A DNA stretch of 64,000 nt from contig CAZQZT010000003.1 in the NCBI GenBank assembly GCA_964597925.1, positions 35,199 through 99,198 of the forward strand, given 5' to 3'. Below the pieces are notes generated by a model. It saw only the letters and a program-made list of their open reading frames with translations. It made no database searches and was not told the origin of the DNA. How positions within the stretch are numbered: position 1 is the stretch's first letter; every line of letters begins with the position of its first letter. The translations under genes and the position numbers were made by a program. Below are positions 3,070 through 48,576 of this stretch, piece by piece. Source of the stretch: an uncultured Candidatus Saccharibacteria bacterium (lineage in GTDB: Bacteria; Patescibacteriota; Saccharimonadia; Saccharimonadales; JBBQAJ01).

Positions 3070-4071
3070 ATGAGTGAAATTGAAGTGCTAGCTATAGGCG
3101 ATGTAGTAACAGATGCATTTATAAAACTGTTAGATGACAGAGCCAGTACGTATGAAAACGAAGATGGAAAGTTTTTGGCCATGCCATTCGGCATGAAAGT
3201 ACCTTTTGACCACGCAGAAGTGATTGAGGCAGTTGGTAATGCAGCTAATGCGGCAGTTAGTTTTGCAAAGCTAGGAATTAACAGTGGCTTGATATCAAAT
3301 GTAGGGGGTGATTCGCATGGTCGCGACATTATAAAAGCACTTCATGATAAAAAAGTTGATAGTAGATTCGTAATCATAAATTCGAACAAAACTACTAACT
3401 ATCACTACGTGCTATGGTACAAAGACGAGCGTACTATCCTGATAAAACATGAAGAATACGACTATCATTGGCCACGATTCCGTGATGCCGACATCCCAAA
3501 ATGGGTATACTTTAGCTCGATAAGTGAAAAAGCTCTAGATAGATATCACGATTTGGTTGCAGACTGGCTAGAAGAAAACCCAGAAATAAAGCTGGCGTTC
3601 CAGCCTGGAACTTTCCAGCTTGAGGCTGGGGTAGAGCGTCTAAAACGGCTGTATGAGCGCACAGAAGTGCTGGTTTTTAACCGTGAAGAAGCTGTGCAGG
3701 TAACGGGCGGAGATTATGACAACGTTCACGAACTCCTAGACAGACTTCATAGTTACGGACCAAAAATTGTATGTATAACAGATGGTCCAGCCGGGGCTTA
3801 TGCCTCAGACGGGAACGTTCGCTTAAAAATGCCTCCATATCCAGACCCAGCTCCTCCTTTTGAGCGCACTGGTGCAGGCGATGCCTTTGCGAGCACATTC
3901 GTGGCTGCTCTTATCCAAGGCAATAACATCGAGGGTGCACTTCAGTGGGCGCCAATAAATTCTATGAATGTAGTCCAGCATATGGGAGCCCAAGAAGGTT
4001 TGCTGACCGAACATGAAATAGGCGAATTTCTCAAAAAAGCCCCAGAATGGTACAAGCCCGAAAAGTTCTAG
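3070..4071 (+). CDS. PfkB/ribokinase-family sugar or nucleoside kinase
   Basis: C-terminal PfkB signature TGAGDAFASTFVAAL and an N-terminal GDVVTD glycine motif. Substrate not assignable from sequence. Confidence 0.8.
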   Translation: MSEIEVLAIGDVVTDAFIKLLDDRASTYENEDGKFLAMPFGMKVPFDHAEVIEAVGNAANAAVSFAKLGINSGLISNVGGDSHGRDIIKALHDKKVDSRFVIINSNKTTNYHYVLWYKDERTILIKHEEYDYHWPRFRDADIPKWVYFSSISEKALDRYHDLVADWLEENPEIKLAFQPGTFQLEAGVERLKRLYERTEVLVFNREEAVQVTGGDYDNVHELLDRLHSYGPKIVCITDGPAGAYASDGNVRLKMPPYPDPAPPFERTGAGDAFASTFVAALIQGNNIEGALQWAPINSMNVVQHMGAQEGLLTEHEIGEFLKKAPEWYKPEKF

Positions 4072-4730
4072 CCGATTTCAGTATATAGAGAGGTGTTACC
4101 TAGTTTTTCCAACGTAAGCCTATCTACTTTTTTTCTAAATTCCCGCTCACCTTTTTCGCCATTTTTTGTTCCAGATGCTATTACTGACAATGCCACACGC
4201 CTAACGTGATTATTTTTAGACATAGGACTCGCTAACGCCACTCCGCCCAGTGACTGTTTAACCATTTTGATTTTATTGTCGCGACTTGCGCGTAGCTCTT
4301 TTTTGTCTAAATCAAATTCGTGTATTCGTTTTCGATTTTCATCCATTTTCATGTTACGGATCTCGGTGCGCTCCACAAGACTTTCTAATTTTTGAGTCGT
4401 TGTTGCGTCTCCTTGCTTTTCGGCACGAGTCTTCATACCGTTAAACATGGCTTCGGTTAATTTATGGTCTGCTATAGGGTCTAACTCTCCGCCTGAAGTC
4501 GATAGGTCATAACCTCTGACATATTTTGCTACGGTTGCCCAAAAGCCGTCTGTTTTGTCCGAAATTAAGGCAGCCCCAAGTGCTACGGTAGCTGGCCAGT
4601 TCGGGTCAGATTCACCAATCCATTCACCTATCATTTCGGCGTGCTGGTCCCGGAATGCAGTGTCCTTATCTGCTAGCCCCTGAAAACCATCAGCCAAATT
4701 TTCTCTTATTGCTTGTACATTTACAGACAT
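4068..4730 (-). CDS. Hypothetical protein (220 aa). Soluble, charged and Lys/Glu-rich, with no recognisable motif.
   Basis: Long ORF with coding-like composition, divergent from the next ORF. No Walker, HExxH or TM motifs seen. Confidence 0.5.
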   Translation of the reverse strand: MSVNVQAIRENLADGFQGLADKDTAFRDQHAEMIGEWIGESDPNWPATVALGAALISDKTDGFWATVAKYVRGYDLSTSGGELDPIADHKLTEAMFNGMKTRAEKQGDATTTQKLESLVERTEIRNMKMDENRKRIHEFDLDKKELRASRDNKIKMVKQSLGGVALASPMSKNNHVRRVALSVIASGTKNGEKGEREFRKKVDRLTLEKLGNTSLYTEIG

Positions 4731-4837: not shown

Positions 4838-6094
4838 GTGTGCAAACTAGTCGCCGAGTTGGTCGGAGCAGATGAACAAGTTGTTCGCGAGATGTTCGTA
4901 CGACTGGAGCGTCAGTCTGGTGAGCCTGGTGTTGATCTTCGTCTGACTAGTGAGATTTATGGCAAACTGCATATGAAAATGCGAACTCTTGGTTTAGACC
5001 CAAACGACACAACTCCGCATGAGCTGTATCATTCACTGCTAAGCCTAGCGGCACTGCACGACAAGTTTCTTGCTAGGCGTATTGGCATAGATGATCCAGA
5101 AAATGCTACAGAGATAGCCAAGGCTATTGTTCGGTTGATAGAACGCATGCGTTTCTCGAAGCATTCATGGGCCTTAAAGCCTACGGCTGCTCGGCGTCTG
5201 CTTAGGCAGACTCCGCCAAAGTACCTCATGAAACTACTAAATTACCGCTCTTTAGATTCTATGCTGAAGCGTGAATCTCCTATGGAGCTTTTGGCTGTGG
5301 CTCGACACTGCGAATCTCAGAACTGGCAGAAGCGATTCGTCCATACATACAGGAAACTACAGCCAAACGACTTTGAAGTACGCGATATAGAAGTAATATA
5401 TCTTGCCGATAACCGCTGGGAGGCTGTTGGGGATATGTTTAGTAGTACAAAGCATAACAACATTATTCACACGCCAGAAGTGGGCGTTGTTGCTATTTTG
5501 CCAGCCAAAGTAGAGAAACGTACTGGGCTTACGCTCACGACACTGCTACTTACTTTGCACTATATAAACGAAATAAGAGTCTTTAGTACTTACTGTAAAT
5601 TTCATCACATGCGTACGGACTTTGGCGGTTTGCTAGTTGAGCATTTGCTGCACGAAAAACAAGACCACGTAGCCTTAGTAGGACAGCCCGTACACTGGCG
5701 AGTGGTGCATCGGTACTACGGTACGAGAGATCGATTTAACCATCCAGAAATATTTGAGCCTCACGTACAACCAGAAGATTTAACTTATCGCAAAGCAGAG
5801 GCAATACTTTATCGTCTGGAGCCTGCACTTCATTTTTGGCATGACACAGACTATGTGGGCTTGCCAGAAACTGACGGACCGATAAGTTTTAGTCTTACAG
5901 ATATGGCGATGAATCTAGTAAATGGATTGCCGTATGAAAAGAGAGCTTATTATCACATGCAGGATTCACTGTGGAACGAAGTGTATAGTCGATATATAGG
6001 TCAGACAAGTTTTGAGAAGCAAATGTTGCAGCAGCTGGACGAACAGCCAGTTTTGGCTGAACAGCCAGCCATGAGTATGGAGTTCGTGCTATAG
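4838..6094 (+). CDS. Hypothetical protein (418 aa, GTG start). His-rich, with no recognisable catalytic motif.
   Basis: Long ORF with no internal stops. GTG at 4838 sits about 12 nt downstream of AAGAAGGG. No NTPase or TM motifs. Confidence 0.5.
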   Translation: MCKLVAELVGADEQVVREMFVRLERQSGEPGVDLRLTSEIYGKLHMKMRTLGLDPNDTTPHELYHSLLSLAALHDKFLARRIGIDDPENATEIAKAIVRLIERMRFSKHSWALKPTAARRLLRQTPPKYLMKLLNYRSLDSMLKRESPMELLAVARHCESQNWQKRFVHTYRKLQPNDFEVRDIEVIYLADNRWEAVGDMFSSTKHNNIIHTPEVGVVAILPAKVEKRTGLTLTTLLLTLHYINEIRVFSTYCKFHHMRTDFGGLLVEHLLHEKQDHVALVGQPVHWRVVHRYYGTRDRFNHPEIFEPHVQPEDLTYRKAEAILYRLEPALHFWHDTDYVGLPETDGPISFSLTDMAMNLVNGLPYEKRAYYHMQDSLWNEVYSRYIGQTSFEKQMLQQLDEQPVLAEQPAMSMEFVL

Positions 6095-8888: not shown

Positions 8889-10082
8889 TCAGTTTTTGAC
8901 TAAAGAAAGTTCAGGATTGGCAACACGTAAGCCTAGCCGAGTTGCTTGATGTGCAATTCTTCGTCCACCAGCGAATGGTTTAAGTGCCATTCCATGGCCC
9001 CGACCCTCTAGAACATCTACGCTGATTTGTTCGGGTAAGTCTTTTTGCATCCGAGATAGCATATCTAGTTGTAGCAGTGGGTCGTTACTGCCACTAATAA
9101 CTACCTTGGGTATATGTTCAATAACTTCTCTTTGCTCATCTTCTGGCGTGCCTCGCATTATACTTAAACCCTGTCTACCCATAACTCTCAAATCTTGACT
9201 TCTCGGGCCGGAAGCGCCCAACATCTTTAAGGCACCAATTAGATGCTTCGGGCGTGTTTTTAAAATTAGTTCTTTCACTCCATCAATTCCCATATGCGGC
9301 ATGAATAAAAATGCCATATCCTTGGCAACATTTCTCGGATCTACTAGAGCATGAGCATAGTCAACTATAGCTTGAATTTCCAGAGGGCTTCCATGTTCAA
9401 GGTTATAAAGCGCAACGCCGTGATTTTCTATAGTCCCTTCAGAAACACCAACTAGCATTAGCGGTGAATTAGGGAAGAAGGTCTCCAGAAATCTTCGCTC
9501 GTGTTCAACTAGCTGTTTCATGTCATGATCTAGCAGGTCAGACCAACTTAACTCTTGCCCAAGTGGGCCTATGCCATATGTTGCATGCGTGACAATAGAG
9601 GCAAGTGGCATTTGTCGCGAAAGCTGCTTGTGGTGAATCCAGCCCAACCCTTTCTCGACTATTTCACCAAGGCCCGGCTTGCTGAAGACCACAATAGGCT
9701 CAGAGTCGGTAACACAGCCTAGCAAGGCATCACTATACCACCAGACATGGCGTCGGTCGTCTATAGTTGCCACCATAAGGTAATGGTCGCGCTCGGGATA
9801 TTTATCTTGCTTTCTTCCGTCTCGTGTCTTGAACTCCACAACTTCGACGTTACTCAGACCAGAATTGCAATTTGCGGATGAGAATGGTTCTGGAAGGAAA
9901 ACGTTCTCGTGAGTAAGGGCCTTTCTATGCTCTTGGCCCAAGGCTGCCATACCTACTCTTGATATTAAAACACCCTCGCCTGTGCGAGGGTGAACTAAGT
10001 GCTCATCAGTCATTAAGCTTGAAGTGTCCATATGACTACTTGGGTTTGGGGGAAATTCTACTAGTTCGACCCGCGTTACCAT
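8889..10082 (-). CDS. Two-domain protein: unknown N-terminal domain (~190 aa) fused to an alpha/beta-hydrolase fold
   Basis: Nucleophile elbow GVSEG (LMLVGVSEGT), a downstream SGSNDPLL acid residue and a GRGHGMA His motif near the C-terminus. Confidence 0.6.
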   Translation of the reverse strand: MVTRVELVEFPPNPSSHMDTSSLMTDEHLVHPRTGEGVLISRVGMAALGQEHRKALTHENVFLPEPFSSANCNSGLSNVEVVEFKTRDGRKQDKYPERDHYLMVATIDDRRHVWWYSDALLGCVTDSEPIVVFSKPGLGEIVEKGLGWIHHKQLSRQMPLASIVTHATYGIGPLGQELSWSDLLDHDMKQLVEHERRFLETFFPNSPLMLVGVSEGTIENHGVALYNLEHGSPLEIQAIVDYAHALVDPRNVAKDMAFLFMPHMGIDGVKELILKTRPKHLIGALKMLGASGPRSQDLRVMGRQGLSIMRGTPEDEQREVIEHIPKVVISGSNDPLLQLDMLSRMQKDLPEQISVDVLEGRGHGMALKPFAGGRRIAHQATRLGLRVANPELSLVKN

Positions 10083-27759: not shown

Positions 27760-28020
27760 TGTTTATATGGTACCAGACCTGAAGTTCTAGGCATGCCGTC
27801 TGTTATACAACATGATTAGCTCGAGGCCTGACGAAAGACAGCGGAAGTAGAATGATTAGATACCATTATGCGCACTTTTTCACCGCGACATCCGTCTTGC
27901 TGAATTTGTTGATCCTATACAAACCGCACTCGGCAACTTGATAAATAAATCCAAATGGCGTATATTATAGGTTGTTCAGGTCGGCCAGCAGGTCGGCTTT
28001 TTTCATACAAAGGAGAAGGA

Positions 28021-29205
28021 ATGGATTTAGATATAAAAAGCTTGGCACTGGCCGTAAAAACCATAGCCGAAGAAAAGAATTTACCAGAAGACGTAGTGCA
28101 AGAAATTGTAGAACAGGCTCTAGCTGCTGCTTATCGTCGTGATTATGGCGAGCGAGAGCAAGAGGTTCGTGTTAGCATGAATCTAAACAACGGAGAAGTG
28201 GACGCTTACATCAGTAAAGAAGTCGTAGAGAAAGTAGGTGATGAAAGTTTTGAGATAAGCCTCAAAGACGCACAGCTAATGAAGAAAAATGCCAAGGCTG
28301 GAGATACTATTGAGATTTTTCAAAAAGTAGAATCTTTTGGTCGCGTTGCGGCGCAGACTGCCAAGCAAGTTATTTTGCAGCGTCTTCGCGAAGCAGAACG
28401 TGAAATAATCATGACTGAATACGAAGATAAAATCGGCACAGTTGTAAACGGTATAGTTGCTCGTGTAGAAGGTAACATCGTCAGAGTAGATTTGGGTAAA
28501 GCACAAGGCATTATGCCTCGTAGCGAACAGATTCAGGGCGAACACTATCACGCCGGGCAACGCCTAAAGGTGTTTCTAAAAGATGTAGAGCGTGGTTTCC
28601 GCGGTCCGCAGCTTGTTGTGTCTCGTGGCAACAATCAGTTCATTGAGTGGCTATTCCGTGGTGAAGTACCAGAAATGGAAAACGGAGCAGTGGAGATTAA
28701 GAATATTGCCAGAGAAGCAGGTGTGCGCAGTAAGATTGCCGTAGCTAGCAGTGTGCCCGGAGTAGACCCGGTCGGTACTTTTGTAGGCGGTCATGGTACT
28801 CGCGTGAATGCTGTTATGAGCGAAGTTGGCGAACAAGAAAAGATTGACATAGTGGTGTTTAATGAAGACCCAGCTACATATATAACAAACGCCTTAAGCC
28901 CCACAAAAGTTACCAAGGTAGTATTAGATGAGGCCACCAAGAAAGGCAAAGTAATCGTGCCAGAGGACCAGCTGAGCATAGCAATAGGAAAAAGCGGTCA
29001 AAACGTTCGTTTGGCTAGTAAGTTAACGGGTTATGAACTAGACATAAACGCTGAACAGGAAATTGCAGACGAACCTGCGCCAATCATAGAAACATCCAAG
29101 CCAGTTGTGCATAAGCTCAAGAAAAAAGAAGCCCTTGAAAGCGCCCTGCTAGAAGCCATAGAAGAACACGGTACTGAAGATACAGAAGAAAAAGCAACTC
29201 AATAG
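28021..29205 (+). CDS. nusA: Transcription termination/antitermination factor NusA
   Basis: Strong RBS AAAGGAGAAGGA before ATG 28021. N-terminal NusA domain, S1 domain and two KH domains. The ORF-track start at 27955 is probably too far upstream. Confidence 0.9.
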   Translation: MDLDIKSLALAVKTIAEEKNLPEDVVQEIVEQALAAAYRRDYGEREQEVRVSMNLNNGEVDAYISKEVVEKVGDESFEISLKDAQLMKKNAKAGDTIEIFQKVESFGRVAAQTAKQVILQRLREAEREIIMTEYEDKIGTVVNGIVARVEGNIVRVDLGKAQGIMPRSEQIQGEHYHAGQRLKVFLKDVERGFRGPQLVVSRGNNQFIEWLFRGEVPEMENGAVEIKNIAREAGVRSKIAVASSVPGVDPVGTFVGGHGTRVNAVMSEVGEQEKIDIVVFNEDPATYITNALSPTKVTKVVLDEATKKGKVIVPEDQLSIAIGKSGQNVRLASKLTGYELDINAEQEIADEPAPIIETSKPVVHKLKKKEALESALLEAIEEHGTEDTEEKATQ

Positions 29206-29359
29206 CAGAGCAACCTTCGAGTAGTGTTGTTCCAGTAGCTATCGGGGCAATTGCGATTGGTCTTTGAGCTAGCATTGTAAAGTGAGGACTTCAAGCTGGG
29301 CGGAGTGTACACTCTCATCGTTTTGTGCCAGAAAGACAACTCCTTTACAACGCCGTAAA

Positions 29360-29386
29360 TTAGCACTCTTGACCTATGAGTGCTAA
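29360..29386 (+). promoter_or_regulatory. CIRCE (HrcA operator) TTAGCACTC-N9-GAGTGCTAA overlapping the -35 of the clpC promoter. -35 TTGACC is at 29369-29374 and -10 TATAAT at 29391-29396.
   Basis: Perfect match to the canonical CIRCE consensus. The spacer contains TTGACC, with a 16-nt gap to TATAAT. Confidence 0.75.
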
Positions 29387-29447
29387 TTGCTATAATAATT
29401 ACTAGCGAAGCTTTTAGAATAGTCGCTACAAGGATGCGTATAAACAT

Positions 29448-31931
29448 ATGATGCCGCAATCGCCGGATTTTCAAGAATTTTTAAATCATTTAACTGACAA
29501 CGCGCTGAGCAGTCTTAAGCATGCCGATGCGGTTGCCCGGAGTTTTGGTAGTGCTTACGTTGGTACGGAGCATTTGCTATTGGGCGTATTAGCACAAGAC
29601 AGCAGTATGGGTGCTAAGATCCTGTCAGACGCAGGTGTGACACTCGACAGGGCTCGTTTGGTGCTAAACCTGACGCCTAAAACCTTAGTCATAAATCTAG
29701 GAGGCAAGGGGTTAAGTGAAACAGCCAAACTCACGCTCAAGATGGCACAAGACGTTGCTCAAGAATTTAGCCAGGAATACACTGGCACAGAGCACATTTT
29801 ATACAGTATATTGAGTCAAAAGAATGCTAGGGCCACCAAACTGCTTTCTGACATGAATGTAAATGTAGACGGTTTGAATAACGAGCTAGAACAGTTTCTA
29901 AACCGCCAACAATATGACGAAGACAGTGAATCCGCAACCGAAAATCGCAGCAAACGGAGCAAAAAACAACGCAAAACAGCACTGGATTTTTTCGGAACTG
30001 ATTTGACCAATATGGCACGTCAGGGCAAACTTGATCCTGTAGTTGGACGCGAGCCACAAATCAAACGTGTGATTACTATATTGAACCGTCGGACAAAGAA
30101 CAATCCAGTACTAATAGGTGAACCGGGTGTTGGAAAAACAGCCATAGTAGAAGGTCTTGCACAGAGAATAGTGACCGAAGATGTGCCGGATAGTTTGCTG
30201 GATAAAAGAATTGTGATGCTTGATCTAGCGGGAATGATTGCTGGTACCAAATATCGTGGCGAGTTTGAAGAGCGACTCAAAAAAGTCATGGCTGAACTTG
30301 AGCAAGACAAAAAAACTATTGTGTTTATAGATGAGCTTCATCTGATCGTAGGAGCAGGAGCAGCTGAAGGTGCAATGGATGCTGGTAATATACTCAAACC
30401 AGCGTTGGCTCGTGGCAAGATTCAATTAGTCGGCGCTACCACAACTGCTGAATACACAAAGCATATAGAAAAAGACGCAGCTTTAGAGCGCCGTTTCCAA
30501 CCAATTCAAGTACCTGAAACCACGGTCCCCGAGACGCTTGCGATTTTGAAGGGTTTGCGCAAACATTATGAAGCCTTTCACGGCGTAAAGGTGAGCGATG
30601 ATGTACTTGAAGACACTGTCACTCTAGCAAAGCGCTACATCAATGATCGTTTCATGCCAGACAAAGCCATTGACTTACTAGACGAAACAGCGGCACACCT
30701 TCGAGTAGATAAAGGAGTGACACCTCCAGAAGTTCGCAAACTGCAGAAAGAGCTTAAGCTGGTGAATTCTCGTCGCGAAAGGGCTGCCGATAACGAAGAT
30801 TACGAAAAAGCCGCCAAATACAAACAGCGTGCTAGCCAAATTTCTGATGATTTGAAAAAACTAGAAGCCAGTGGTAAAGCAATAAAGCGACTGACTATGA
30901 CCAGTGATGACGTAGCTGACGTGGTAGCCCGCATGACAGGCGTACCAGTAAGCAAAGTGATTCGCTCCGAAGCGAAATACCTGCTAAATCTAGAAAAAAA
31001 CCTTAGTAAATTTGTAATTGGGCAAGGCGAAGCGGTGGGGGCAGTAGCCAAAGCTATTCGTCGTAATCGTTCTGGCGTGGGTGCTGAAGGCCGGCCAATC
31101 GGTTCATTTATATTCCTTGGCCCAACTGGCGTGGGAAAGACAGAGCTAGCCAGAGTATTAGCAAGGGAATTCTTCGGTTCAGAGGATTCGCTAGTTAAGA
31201 TTGACATGAGCGAATTCAACGAACACCACAACGTCTCAAGACTTGTTGGTGCGCCTGCTGGCTATGTTGGCTATGACGACGGTGGACAGCTAACAGACAA
31301 AATCCGTCGCCAACCGTATAGTTTGGTGCTGTTTGACGAGATTGAAAAAGCTCATCCAGATGTTTTTAATATACTACTTCAAGTGCTAGAAGACGGTGTT
31401 TTGAATGATGCAAAAGGTCGTAAGATAGATTTTAGCAACGCTATCATTATCATGACCAGCAACATCGGTGCCGACCGATTGCAGAAAGAAGCCGCTCTAG
31501 GATTTCAAGTTGGCGATAGTGTGAATAAAGAAAACCTGGATAGCCTGCATCAAGCAAACAAAGACAAAGTTCAAGATGCATTAAAAAAGATGATGCGTCC
31601 AGAATTGTTAAACCGCATAGACAAGACGATTGTGTTTAGGGCTTTAACCAAAAAAGACATCTTGACCATTCTAGATTTACAGCTGAACGAATTACGTCAA
31701 CGATTGGTCAAACATGGGTTGGGCTTGCAGTTGACGGCGGGGGCAAAAGATTACTTGCTAGAGCATGGATATGATGCTAAAAATGGAGTTAGGCCAATGC
31801 GCCGTTTACTACAAGACACTCTGGAAGATCACGTAGCGCTAGAACTACTAGACGGCAAATATCAAAAGGGCAACATAATAAAAGTAACAGCCAAAAAAGA
31901 CGACCTGCTGTACACAATCACTTCCGAATAA
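29448..31931 (+). CDS. clpC: ATP-dependent Clp protease ATP-binding subunit ClpC (class III stress AAA+ chaperone)
   Basis: Double Clp_N repeat, two AAA+ modules ([16 protein letters not shown]) and a UVR-like linker. 827 aa, lacking the long ClpB M-domain. Confidence 0.9.
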
Positions 31932-31945
31932 GCTACACTTATCAC

Positions 31946-32917
31946 GTGATAAAAAAGACCAAAATAATTACCCGCATAGCAACTATCGTGGTTGTGGTTG
32001 CTGTACCGGTAGCTATATGGAGCCAGCGTTGGAATATCCATGATGCCATGCGTTTGCGTAGCTATATTCCCTCAGCAGAAGTTTCACAGCTCGCTACAGA
32101 CACGACTATGAATGATTCGGCACGCAGGGTCTTTTATGTTAATCGCCCAGAGCTTCAGGGCAGAGAGGCGTTTAATCAAAGTTGCACTTCGTCTGAGCAA
32201 ACCATTGTTTTGGGGTGCTTTGTATCAGGAACCGGAATATTCTTGCATAACGTTTCAGACGAACGCTTGAAGGGTATTGTGCAAGTAACAGCCGCACACG
32301 AAGTACTACATGCCGCATATCAGCGACTGGATAGGAGGGAAAAAGCGCGAGTAAATGACATGCTTGAGCAAACTTTTGCTAAACTAGATAACCAGCGCAT
32401 AAAAGACACTATACAAGACTATCGAAAAAACGGTGCTGACACTACGAATGAACTTCATTCTATATTAGCAACAGAAGTTCGTGATTTGCCTGCAGAGCTA
32501 GAGCAGTATTATAGCCAGTATTTTACTAGTAGGGTCAAGATAGTAGAATTCTCCGAAAAATACGAACAAGCTTTCACGCAACGAAGGCAACAAGTGGCGG
32601 CGGCAGATGTAAAGTTAGCGGAGCTAAAACAGCGAATAGAAGCAGCCGAAGCTACGCTGCAGACCAAAGCCGAACAACTAAAAGCAGAGCGCGCTAGGAT
32701 GGATGGACTGCTGGCTGCTAAAAATTTCGAAGATTTTAATGCGGCTGTTCCAGCGTTCAACGCCAGTGTGAGCGCTTATAACGCACAGGTTGCGAGCGTT
32801 AGAAGACTAATTGACCAGTACAACGCCCTAGTAGCTGAACGCAACGCTATAGTTACTGAAGAAACAGAACTGGTAAAAGCTTTAGACAGCAGACCAGACA
32901 CTATTCAGACCGAGTAG
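31946..32917 (+). CDS. Membrane-anchored HExxH protein (putative zinc metallopeptidase) with a C-terminal coiled coil
   Basis: N-terminal TM helix (ITRIATIVVVVAVPVAIW), motif VTAAHEVLHAAYQRL and an Ala/Glu/Gln-rich coiled coil at 200-300 aa. Sits between clpC and radA. Confidence 0.5.
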   Translation: MIKKTKIITRIATIVVVVAVPVAIWSQRWNIHDAMRLRSYIPSAEVSQLATDTTMNDSARRVFYVNRPELQGREAFNQSCTSSEQTIVLGCFVSGTGIFLHNVSDERLKGIVQVTAAHEVLHAAYQRLDRREKARVNDMLEQTFAKLDNQRIKDTIQDYRKNGADTTNELHSILATEVRDLPAELEQYYSQYFTSRVKIVEFSEKYEQAFTQRRQQVAAADVKLAELKQRIEAAEATLQTKAEQLKAERARMDGLLAAKNFEDFNAAVPAFNASVSAYNAQVASVRRLIDQYNALVAERNAIVTEETELVKALDSRPDTIQTE

Positions 32918-41609: not shown

Positions 41610-42425
41610 ATGTATAGCGGAACCACTCTCACCAAAATGTCCGGTCGTTTGCTCGGCACTCATCAGAAAATTGATCGTATAGCACGTAAACAACTCATGC
41701 GCTTAGTGCCAGAATTAAGCGGCTTTCCTCCGATAAAAAGAATCCTGCATTATGAGGGAAAAAACGGCCCCGACGCCATTAAGCGTAAAAGTCCCGCACG
41801 TAATGAGCCTTGGCATTTTATTAACCCTTATGATGACAAAGATATGCTACTTCTTGAGATAATTCAAGAACATTACGACAGGCTAGTTCAGGAGTTTAAA
41901 GTTGGTAATCAGGAGCGAATAGCGTTCGAAGCTGCCTGGCTGTCACACGCTATGGTAGATGGTCTGACTCCTGCGCATCATTACCCATACGAAGAAGAGC
42001 TAAAAGATATCAGAAATCATTCAGAACTATCCGACATAGATACCTTAAAAAAGAAATTTGTTATGCCTGGCAACACTACTCGCGAACTTCTGAGCAATAA
42101 TTGGCGGGCTTGGGGACCCCGAGGTCTCAAAACGGCTCATACGTTGTTCGAAATGGGCGTTGCTACGCTCATCGCTCCGCTACAATTCGGAGAAGTCCTA
42201 GTTACAGAAGCTGATATCGCACGATTAAAAAAGGTTGGTTTGCAGGCCTGGTACCGTGATACTGCCCGAGAAATCGCAGTGCTCGACATGTATCACAACT
42301 ATATCGATAAAGGTTGGACACCCAAATTGGCTTGGCAAGTAAGGCATAGGCTGGGGCCTACTCTGGTAAAGTCGGTTGCATTGGCTTGGCATGCTGCCCT
42401 GACAGAGTCGGAAGCTACTAAATAA
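41610..42425 (+). CDS. Hypothetical protein with possible Zn-phospholipase C / S1-P1 nuclease-like His/Asp signatures
   Basis: GTHQKI near the N-terminus and SHAMVDGLTPAHH (H-x3-D-x3-P-x-HH) mid-protein. 271 aa. Confidence 0.4.
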   Translation: MYSGTTLTKMSGRLLGTHQKIDRIARKQLMRLVPELSGFPPIKRILHYEGKNGPDAIKRKSPARNEPWHFINPYDDKDMLLLEIIQEHYDRLVQEFKVGNQERIAFEAAWLSHAMVDGLTPAHHYPYEEELKDIRNHSELSDIDTLKKKFVMPGNTTRELLSNNWRAWGPRGLKTAHTLFEMGVATLIAPLQFGEVLVTEADIARLKKVGLQAWYRDTAREIAVLDMYHNYIDKGWTPKLAWQVRHRLGPTLVKSVALAWHAALTESEATK

Positions 42426-46778: not shown

Positions 46779-47018
46779 ATGCATGAGACAATTATAACAA
46801 CAAATGGTTCAATTCAGCCTGAACGCCCCCCGACAATTAACGATTACGATCGACATCTAAACGTTGTGCTTAGTGAATTTCCGCGCCATCGGCTGATGAT
46901 TAGAATAATTGACCTTGCAGTAGATAGACTCGCCCAAACAGATCCGGGTAAAGCAAGTGAACTTGGCTTTAATCTGTTTGAAATGGTAGAAGCATATGAT
47001 AAGAGGCTTAGACAATAA
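46779..47018 (+). CDS. Small hypothetical protein (79 aa) between tig and clpP
   Basis: Preceded by a promoter-like TTGCTA-N18-TGATATAAT. No recognisable motif. Confidence 0.4.
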   Translation: MHETIITTNGSIQPERPPTINDYDRHLNVVLSEFPRHRLMIRIIDLAVDRLAQTDPGKASELGFNLFEMVEAYDKRLRQ

Positions 47019-47038
47019 ACTAGCACTCTTGACTTGTG

Positions 47039-47065
47039 AGTGCTAGTTTTTTATACTGGGCACGT
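47039..47065 (+). promoter_or_regulatory. CIRCE-like operator CTAGCACTC-N9-GAGTGCTAG overlapping the clpP promoter. -35 TTGACT is at 47048-47053 and -10 TATACT at 47071-47076.
   Basis: 8 of 9 positions per arm match the CIRCE consensus. The spacer carries the -35, with a 17-nt gap to TATACT. Confidence 0.65.
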
Positions 47066-47081
47066 AAACAAAGGGTTATAG

Positions 47082-47669
47082 ATGCCGCTTATTCCAACCG
47101 TTATAGAAAGTGAAGGCCGCTACGAAAGAGCCTATGATATTTATTCTCGTCTGCTAAAAGAACGCATAATCTTCATGGGAGAGGACGTAAACCCTCACAC
47201 CGCCAATCTGATCGTTGCACAGCTATTATTCTTACAATCAGAAGATGCCAAAAAAGACATTTACTTATACATAAACAGCCCCGGTGGCAGTGTGTACGAC
47301 GCCCTAGCCATCTACGACACAATACAGTTTGTAAAAAATGACGTTCAGACAGTGGGTATCGGTGTGCAAGCATCGGCTGCTGCATTTTTGCTGAGTTCTG
47401 GTGCTAAAGGTAAGCGCATGATTTTGCCTAACTCCACAGTTATGATTCATCAGCCGTCCTCAGGCACACGTGGCAAAGTAACAGATCAAGAAATTGACCT
47501 TAAAGAATCCTTGCGTGTAAAGAAATTGCTAGAAGGCATCATGGCCAAAAACACTGGCCAAAAACCAGCAAGAATACATGAAGACATGGAACGCGACCGT
47601 TGGATGGACTCGGTTGAAGCCCTGAAATACGGCATAGTAGACGAAGTCATCACTAACCCACCTAAATAG
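47082..47669 (+). CDS. clpP: ATP-dependent Clp protease proteolytic subunit
   Basis: ClpP signature SPGGSV with an active-site Ser, His and Asp in S14 peptidase context. Confidence 0.95.
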
Positions 47670-47685
47670 CAACACGTAAACTATA

Positions 47686-48576
47686 CTATTTATCTAGAGC
47701 ATCGAGTAGTTTGGTTCCACGGAAATTTAGGTCATTGGTTATTCGATCATATTGTTCAGGGTTATTTAGCTCATGAAATGCGTTCATAATTATGATTCGA
47801 CCAATTGATGTTTCGTTATACCTGAGTGCCAGGTCGGGTAGGACGTTTAGGGCTACTATGTCTGGGGAATCAGATACTGGACCTCTAGCAGTGGCTTTAT
47901 TCGTTTTTATTTGAACTTTATATGAAATTTCGGGACCAGATTCGTTCAGTTCTGTCCATATACTTAGGTCCCAGGCATTTGGCCTTGCTTCCAAGCAGCT
48001 ATTGCCGTGATCTTGACGGAAAGTACTTTGTAATGGCAGCCATGTAACGGGTGAATTCATTGGGATATCTGAATCAATTTTTTTAGCTTCTCTCATGGCC
48101 AATATACCAACCGCTATTTCAGTTGTCGTACCGACTAGTGGAAGGGCATTGTCTCCGTCCCAGGTATGCAATTCAGCTTTCGGATTCGATAACCCGTCAT
48201 GGCCGACGTCCACCATTTTAGCATAAGCCGACAATACGTTTTTTCGAGTTGGAAGTTGGTTGCCGGCAGCAACCGATTTGAATAAACCCAGCTGAGCAAG
48301 TCTAAACTTAGAACGTAATCCGTAATACATAAGTGGGTCATTCCCGGCGGAGGCCGCTCTTTTGAAATGAACTGATGCCTTGTTTACAAGATCCTTCTGC
48401 TTGGTATCAAATGCGGCTTGTAGTGACATTTCACCTGCGAAATACTCACCTAAACCACCCCTCCGACGAGCTAGATGCACGCTGTTAGCCAAAGTATCTT
48501 CACCGTTTAAATATGAATCGGATATTACTAATAGGGCTTTTATTGGACTAAGATTTGCTAGATCGGGAGAGGACAT
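47686..48576 (-). CDS. Hypothetical protein (296 aa) with possible Sel1/TPR-like helical repeats in the N-terminal half
   Basis: Long ORF. GEYFAGEMSLQAAFD...AASAGNDPLMYYGLRS resembles Sel1-like repeats. The C-terminal half is unknown. Confidence 0.45.
   Translation of the reverse strand: MSSPDLANLSPIKALLVISDSYLNGEDTLANSVHLARRRGGLGEYFAGEMSLQAAFDTKQKDLVNKASVHFKRAASAGNDPLMYYGLRSKFRLAQLGLFKSVAAGNQLPTRKNVLSAYAKMVDVGHDGLSNPKAELHTWDGDNALPLVGTTTEIAVGILAMREAKKIDSDIPMNSPVTWLPLQSTFRQDHGNSCLEARPNAWDLSIWTELNESGPEISYKVQIKTNKATARGPVSDSPDIVALNVLPDLALRYNETSIGRIIIMNAFHELNNPEQYDRITNDLNFRGTKLLDALDK

Follow-up and report, generated by a model that had tools for sequence, protein, structure and literature searches.

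Predicted HrcA operators overlap the promoters of clpC and clpP in a Saccharibacteria genome fragment

Introduction

In B. subtilis and most bacteria, the class I heat-shock genes are described as controlled by the repressor HrcA and its operator CIRCE in the work of Zuber & Schumann (1994) and Schulz & Schumann (1996), as cited in PMC6305308. The class I targets are the dnaK and groESL operons only, and the operator, an inverted repeat of the form 9-N9-9, is usually located between the -10/+1 region and the start codon. In model bacteria HrcA is kept active by GroEL, and the titration of GroEL by unfolded proteins leads to HrcA inactivation (PMC6305308). The HrcA regulon of Mollicutes comprises dnaK, clpB and lon, and some of its promoters bear CIRCE in tandem (PMC5138195; Chang et al. 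2008, cited there). Mollicutes have neither ClpP nor ClpC, the targets added to their regulon being the ClpB disaggregase and Lon. The clpP gene of S. salivarius is reportedly under dual CtsR/HrcA control (Chastanet & Msadek 2003, as cited in PMC6305308), with CtsR as the main Clp regulator, and in Actinobacteria clpP and clpC are activated by ClgR, which is also among the bifidobacterial stress regulators. The CtsR regulon of Firmicutes takes an extreme form in Oenococcus oeni, where hrcA is absent and CtsR alone controls the clp genes together with dnaK and groESL (PMC6305308).

Very little has been explored of gene regulation in Patescibacteria/CPR. Transcription factors, promoters and heat response go unmentioned in a 2024 perspective on these bacteria, and a literature search found no paper tying HrcA or CIRCE to Saccharibacteria, for which genetic work has relied on the constitutive tuf and rpsJ promoters only, without conditional tools. 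The DNA analysed in this work is a 64-kb stretch from an uncultured Candidatus Saccharibacteria bacterium, hereafter the window, in which a CIRCE element had been predicted on the clpC promoter from the sequence alone (the original prediction).

Results

The clpC gene (29448..31931, plus strand) encodes an 827-aa class-I AAA+ ATPase, as assigned by Pfam, NCBIfam and alignment. The Pfam domains Clp_N (two copies), AAA, UVR, AAA_2 and ClpB_D2-small were recognized, which amounts to two AAA+ modules and a short UVR-type middle domain, both Clp_N repeats being encoded by the 5' part of the gene (29448..29931, plus strand). The ClpB equivalog model matched this protein in two pieces and skipped profile positions 453-520, corresponding to the long M-domain, and the open reading frame was assigned to ClpC rather than to ClpB because a ClpP-docking LGF loop is present at residues 684-686. 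An identical ClpC protein is found on metagenome contigs (Logan SRR86708xx), this organism occurring in runs SRR8670872-SRR8670883, and the nearest named relatives, from 'Candidatus Saccharibacteria' and Saccharimonadales MAGs, share 77-80% identity with it. The proteolytic subunit ClpP, of 195 aa, was identified by family matches at 47082..47669 (plus strand).

Upstream of clpC lies nusA (27955-29205), and downstream are a 323-aa open reading frame (31946-32917), which begins 15 nt past clpC, and radA. The usual bacterial arrangement is nusA-infB, and in the window nusA is followed by clpC instead of infB. The 323-aa open reading frame is conserved in the Logan contigs and gave no match in Pfam or NCBIfam; the order clpC-x-radA recalls the clpC-radA-disA neighbourhood of Firmicutes. 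Between tig and clpP there is a 79-aa open reading frame (46779-47018) with a stop codon that abuts a CIRCE element. The clpX gene is not next to clpP, and the gene that follows (47686-48576, minus strand) had no family match; it is one of five open reading frames of 220-418 aa in the window without a significant Pfam match, together with those at 4068-4730, 4838-6094, 8889-10082 and 41610-42425.

The CIRCE element upstream of clpC, a predicted HrcA dimer site with no strand assigned, occupies positions 29360..29386 and reads TTAGCACTC TTGACCTAT GAGTGCTAA (half-site, spacer, half-site), an exact match to the consensus. Its 9-nt spacer contains the -35 hexamer TTGACC (29369..29374, plus strand), and an extended -10 element TG-C-TATAAT was found at 29388..29396 on the same strand, with TG at 29388-29389 and TATAAT at 29391-29396, 16 nt past the -35 hexamer and 4 nt past the right half-site. 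With this geometry the right half-site takes up most of the -35/-10 gap. The promoter, including the extended -10, scored 11/12 in a consensus scan, and the clpC open reading frame starts 52 nt 3' of the -10 hexamer. The original prediction had proposed a perfect CIRCE at these positions, a -35 TTGACC in its spacer separated by 16 nt from TATAAT, and clpC as the gene downstream; coordinates, sequence and the 16-nt spacing proved right, both hexamers were recovered by the promoter scan, and the identity of the gene agrees with its two Clp_N repeats, UVR-type middle domain and LGF loop.

A motif scan revealed a second CIRCE, absent from the original prediction, at 47020..47046 (again with no strand assigned) on the clpP promoter. 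It reads CTAGCACTC TTGACTTGT GAGTGCTAG, with 2 mismatches to the consensus and a palindrome that is still perfect, and it is located 35 nt upstream of clpP and 17.6 kb from the clpC copy. The clpP promoter (47029..47057, plus strand) is composed of a -35 TTGACT (47029-47034) within the CIRCE spacer, a 17-nt gap and a -10 TATACT (47052-47057). Both elements are inverted repeats of the form TTAGCACTC-N9-GAGTGCTAA, and each overlaps the -35 hexamer and the -35/-10 spacer of its promoter. When the whole 64 kb was scanned with up to 3 mismatches allowed, these 2 sites were obtained vs 0.05 expected by chance, and none of 100 shuffles gave two. In a relaxed scan they were also the only sites with fewer than 6 mismatches, the next best having at least 6, so that within the window CIRCE marks exactly clpC and clpP, the two ClpCP protease genes. 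The possibility that the motif is a dispersed repeat unrelated to promoters, which had been named as a refutation of the original prediction, does not apply in the 64-kb window, since there are only two such sites and both are on promoters.

Conservation of the operator was determined in a motif-blind sample, in which relatives of the window ClpC were taken from metagenomes by protein similarity alone. The 26 loci with an intact upstream region (24 distinct sequences; ClpC identity 72-98%) all carry a CIRCE with at most 4 mismatches, placed 43-224 nt before the start codon; one distant homologue, with 31% identity, has no CIRCE upstream. The spacer begins with TTGAC in 20 of these 26 relatives and with TTGCA in 3, while 3 lack a -35-like hexamer at this position, two of which have TTGAC at the 3' end of the spacer. 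A TAnnAT hexamer at 16-18 nt spacing was present in nearly all of them. In the operator-anchored alignment of the motif-blind relatives, the information content per position was 1.86 and 1.82 bits for the two half-sites, 0.26 bits for the 30 nt upstream and 0.34 bits for the 45 nt downstream.

The operator design found at both window sites, expressed as the pattern TAGCACTC-TTGAC-N4-GAGTGCTA, was searched for in reference genomes (one per species), and at least 120 loci with a TTGAC-bearing CIRCE spacer were recovered. According to the record titles, the loci listed include 73 of Saccharibacteria type, 13 of other Patescibacteria, 9 unlabelled MAGs and 25 of other phyla. Clustering of the first downstream gene among the loci listed gave HrcA (at least 30), DnaK (at least 28), ClpC-type (at least 26), ClpP (at least 9) and Hsp20 (at least 6), with a few cases each of GroES, GroEL and DnaJ, and ClpB as well; the HrcA, Hsp20, ClpB and ClpC assignments were confirmed by Pfam and NCBIfam. 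Among the same loci, the clpP promoters of 9 related genomes have the operator design of the window. A census of the Patescibacteria loci with up to 3 mismatches, in which the counts are biased by the choice of loci, placed CIRCE sites before ClpC (44), DnaK (39), HrcA (37), ClpP (9), Hsp20 (6) and DnaJ (5), and also before ClpB, GrpE and GroES (1-2 sites); operators on hrcA itself, on dnaK and on groES were thus seen in relatives. In one Saccharibacteria locus (L049) the CIRCE is 27 nt upstream of groES-groEL; in another locus (L085) clpC and clpP share an operon preceded by one CIRCE, and in a third (L103) each of the two genes has its own. The linkage between CIRCE and clpC persists to about 50% ClpC identity. 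The promoter consensus derived from the window locus and its relatives is TTGACa, 16-18 nt, TAtaAT. The presence of CIRCE on clp genes appears, from these comparisons, to be a lineage-wide trait and no peculiarity of this genome, a view supported by the sites on both window genes, in the 26 ClpC relatives and on chaperone genes across the lineage. The widening of the HrcA regulon to Clp, put forward in the original prediction together with an analogy to mycoplasma lon and clpB, is supported by these data, and the Mollicutes regulon likewise includes clpB and lon (PMC5138195); a true take-over of Clp control would require that CtsR and ClgR be missing.

Several Saccharibacteria dnaK promoters have two operators (L011, L014, L027, L072, L098, L118, L158:8212-8285 and L162:3991-4065). 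The first has the -35 hexamer in its spacer, and the second, often degenerate, covers the predicted transcript start; some 20 nt separate it from the end of the first (about 47-48 bp from start to start). The clpC and clpP genes have a single operator each, vs two at dnaK.

Some loci stand apart in the reference scan. Three MAGs labelled Acidobacteriota, Gammaproteobacteria and Dialister (L030, L046, L087) carry a short hrcA of Saccharibacteria type with the same operator design, which is probably due to contamination of these bins by Patescibacteria contigs. In three Chloroflexota-type MAGs (L018, L019, L029) the CIRCE-TTGAC element precedes not a chaperone gene but one encoding a small zinc-ribbon protein (CxxC...CxxC, 95-121 aa), and a ClpC/ClpA-like gene of Fervidobacterium has a perfect CIRCE.

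For 30 of the sites among the loci listed, the protein encoded downstream matches both HrcA Pfam domains, PF03444 and PF01628, and the sole match of these proteins among solved structures was T. maritima HrcA (1STZ). The hrcA gene was present in 49 of the fetched loci, or 44 after leaving out 5 Streptococcus loci. The Patescibacteria proteins are short, with 217-256 aa (about 235), as in L038-L122 (for example L086:894-1607 and L122:2300-3049) and P0001-P0120, and a profile search of a protein collection gave at least 8000 such proteins. Alignment with Streptococcus HrcA revealed one clean deletion of about 105 aa just past the N-terminal third. The NCBIfam hrcA equivalog TIGR00331 matched the short protein in two pieces with 167 bits, vs a cut-off of 197, and the canonical architecture of about 340 aa (wHTH, GAF-like domain and inserted dimerising domain) is not found in the lineage protein. 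By its Pfam domains, the short protein is classed as a member of the HrcA family without the canonical architecture. The deleted residues presumably sit where 1STZ (Liu et al. 2005) has the inserted dimerising domain. A structure prediction based on 18 near-identical sequences had a pLDDT of 42.

The genomic context of hrcA was studied in loci of four HrcA clusters (P0044, P0109, P0087 and P0040), which were picked by protein, with no use of the DNA motif. The gene order in them is lepA-ahpC-gmk-x-hrcA-grpE-x-(x)-dnaK, and in the two clusters with enough flanking sequence dnaJ is located one small open reading frame past dnaK. In the P0044 and P0109 loci (L158-L165) a CIRCE with TTGAC in the spacer precedes hrcA, another one precedes dnaK, and a further, more degenerate copy is present in the dnaK leader. 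The lineage therefore possesses an HrcA repressor with the same operator design on its own promoter, predicted to be autoregulated, as well as on the classical targets. As originally stated, hrcA is absent from the 64-kb window, according to Pfam scans of the open reading frames and a six-frame HMM search based on HrcA proteins of the lineage, and it is also absent from the 8-10 kb beyond each window end. The four clusters, with contig counts similar to those of the window genes, all come from other samples, and the presence of hrcA in this organism is expected at the level of its lineage.

Discussion

In all sequence features the operators described here belong to the CIRCE family. Their 9-N9-9 sequence is identical to that of the B. 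subtilis class I genes, the repressor belongs to the same family (wHTH plus HrcA C-terminal domain), and in the Saccharibacteria relatives hrcA likewise bears an operator within an hrcA-grpE-dnaK-dnaJ cluster, as expected for autoregulation. Unlike in class I, the predicted Saccharibacteria targets include clpC, clpP, hsp20 and clpB, the operator spacer encloses the -35 hexamer, and the repressor of the lineage is about 105 aa shorter. The similarity to Mollicutes extends to a reduced genome with very few regulators, to an HrcA that would reach AAA+ quality-control genes and to the tandem CIRCE copies, which in Saccharibacteria are seen at dnaK; the difference is that both ClpCP subunits are targeted here. 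As in S. salivarius, a CIRCE is present on the clpP promoter, but neither clp promoter of the window has a detectable CtsR box. With O. oeni these bacteria would share the collapse of chaperone and protease control onto one repressor, although the repressor family and the operator are different, CtsR recognizing direct heptad repeats, and it is the opposite regulator that has been retained. Finally, the target genes clpP and clpC are the same as those of the actinobacterial ClgR. That regulator activates its targets through an unrelated operator, and no conserved sequence around the clpC operator resembles a ClgR site.

It is very likely that the repeats at clpC and clpP are working HrcA operators placed directly on sigma-70-type promoters, and that HrcA governs the chaperones together with ClpCP. 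By analogy with the established HrcA/CIRCE system, from which HrcA binding, repression, heat induction and GroEL dependence are taken, an HrcA dimer bound to CIRCE would deny RNA polymerase access to the clpC or clpP promoter; this occlusion is expected because the -35 hexamer lies in the operator spacer and the right half-site in the -35/-10 gap. Under heat or protein-folding stress HrcA would lose its DNA-binding capacity, and clpC and clpP would be de-repressed together with hrcA-grpE, dnaK, dnaJ, hsp20, clpB and groESL. In Saccharibacteria one repressor thus probably controls the chaperones and the ClpCP protease, and HrcA would be the single input for both arms.

Other readings of the repeats have to be considered. 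HrcA could supplement a dedicated Clp regulator (CtsR, ClgR or another one) encoded elsewhere in the genome, as in the dual CtsR and HrcA control documented in streptococci and staphylococci (PMC6305308). This arrangement would also accommodate the TM7x transcriptomes, which include no heat-shock condition and in which clp genes and chaperones shifted in opposite directions between symbiosis phases, a pattern unlike that of a single simple regulon, at least under symbiosis conditions. The same lack of concert could also stem from the two operators at dnaK vs the single one at the clp genes, which may confer different repression strengths. A search for CtsR boxes (direct repeat RGTCAAANANRGTCAAA, up to 3 mismatches) gave 9 matches in the window vs 8.2 expected, that is, chance level, and none of them at the clpC or clpP promoter, so that a CtsR box at these promoters was discarded; the upstream neighbour of clpC is nusA and not ctsR. 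In addition, apart from the -10 hardly any information is conserved in the 30 nt before and the 45 nt after the CIRCE, and the flanks of the clpC operator showed no further conserved motif. An additional Clp regulator is for these reasons rather unlikely. The palindrome could instead be the target of another regulator, which converged on or inherited the CIRCE sequence, as might be suggested by the atypical HrcA of the lineage, with its reduced length, its score below the equivalog cut-off and the presumed lack of the insert that dimerises canonical HrcA. However, the winged-helix domain has been retained and aligns to that of T. maritima HrcA, the half-sites do not differ from the pan-bacterial consensus, and this alternative is very improbable because the operator sits on hrcA itself, in 37 loci, which is the classical signature of autoregulation.

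An inverted repeat may also act as an RNA or DNA hairpin, serving as terminator, attenuator or mRNA stability element, and the two copies do fold well (-14.8 kcal/mol at clpC and -17.4 kcal/mol at clpP, with z = -6.2 and -5.1, respectively); the clpP copy moreover starts 1 nt past the stop codon of the 79-aa open reading frame and is followed by six U. Nevertheless, among 25 distinct operators from the relatives 6 of the 9 pairs are invariant and one variable pair is broken (A.C) in 8 and compensated in 3; covariation did not exceed that of shuffles (123/500). It is the sequence of the half-sites, and not their base pairing, that is conserved, which fits a protein operator and not a hairpin. 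Furthermore, the same 18 bases recur before unrelated genes in unrelated contexts, the element would lie outside the transcript of its own promoter, no run of U follows the clpC copy, and no Rfam matches were obtained. A hairpin or terminator as the main role was accordingly rejected, being a shade less probable still than a foreign regulator, although the clpP copy might serve on the side as a terminator of read-through from the tig/79-aa open reading frame transcript. A chance or relic match without function, with 0.05 sites expected per window and a motif kept in all 26 relatives while the flanks diverge, is effectively refuted by the conservation data, and its probability is negligible.

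Returning to HrcA operators on the clp promoters, what is new is the lineage, the fact that ClpC and ClpP are both included, the systematic placement of the -35 hexamer within the spacer and the short repressor. The novelty is modest, considering that clpB, lon and clpP are known HrcA targets elsewhere, and for this reason the finding should be a modest surprise for heat-shock specialists and of more use to CPR biology and tool-building. The loci supply a clear regulon for Patescibacteria/CPR, made up of hrcA, grpE, dnaK, dnaJ, groES, hsp20, clpB, clpC and clpP, and a clear promoter consensus. They also represent a further case of a small genome with stress control on one repressor, a mirror image of Oenococcus, and the compact promoter, with its predicted repression by HrcA, readily suggests itself as a candidate for heat-switchable expression in Saccharibacteria. 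A farther-reaching proposal, advanced here tentatively and with more doubt than conviction, is that the domain-deleted HrcA is the sole regulator of protein quality control in Saccharibacteria, and possibly in the wider Patescibacteria, repressing the chaperones and both ClpCP subunits through operators with the -35 hexamer in the spacer. If this were true, there would be another mode of dimerising on a canonical CIRCE and of sensing stress there, and the operator-promoters of about 40 bp would be the first defined, portable and stress-switchable promoters for CPR genetics.

Some minor features were observed in the surroundings of the clpC operator. The predicted 5' leader of clpC (29403..29447, plus strand), with a transcript start at about 29403 deduced from the -10, contains AAGGA at 29430-29434 and a stem formed by TAGCGA (29403-29408) and TCGCTA (29423-29428). 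Many clpC leaders start with a small stem-loop of this kind (window 29403-29428; L123, L133, L139, L142, L146, L149 and L150), the sequence of which differs between relatives, and some of the arms resemble the outer CIRCE bases (TAGC...GCTA). A conserved leader stem-loop was dropped as a candidate element, as the stem was not significant in the window (z = 0.3) and was weak in the relatives (mean z of -0.9, with 9 of 24 below -1.5); it might represent the remains of a second operator or serve to stabilise the 5' end. On the other side of the operator, in the nusA-clpC spacer, a perfect 12-bp palindrome, GAGTGTACACTC, is located at 29303-29314, 46 nt upstream of the CIRCE, and it is made up of the inner CIRCE bases (GAGTG/CACTC) with their order flipped.
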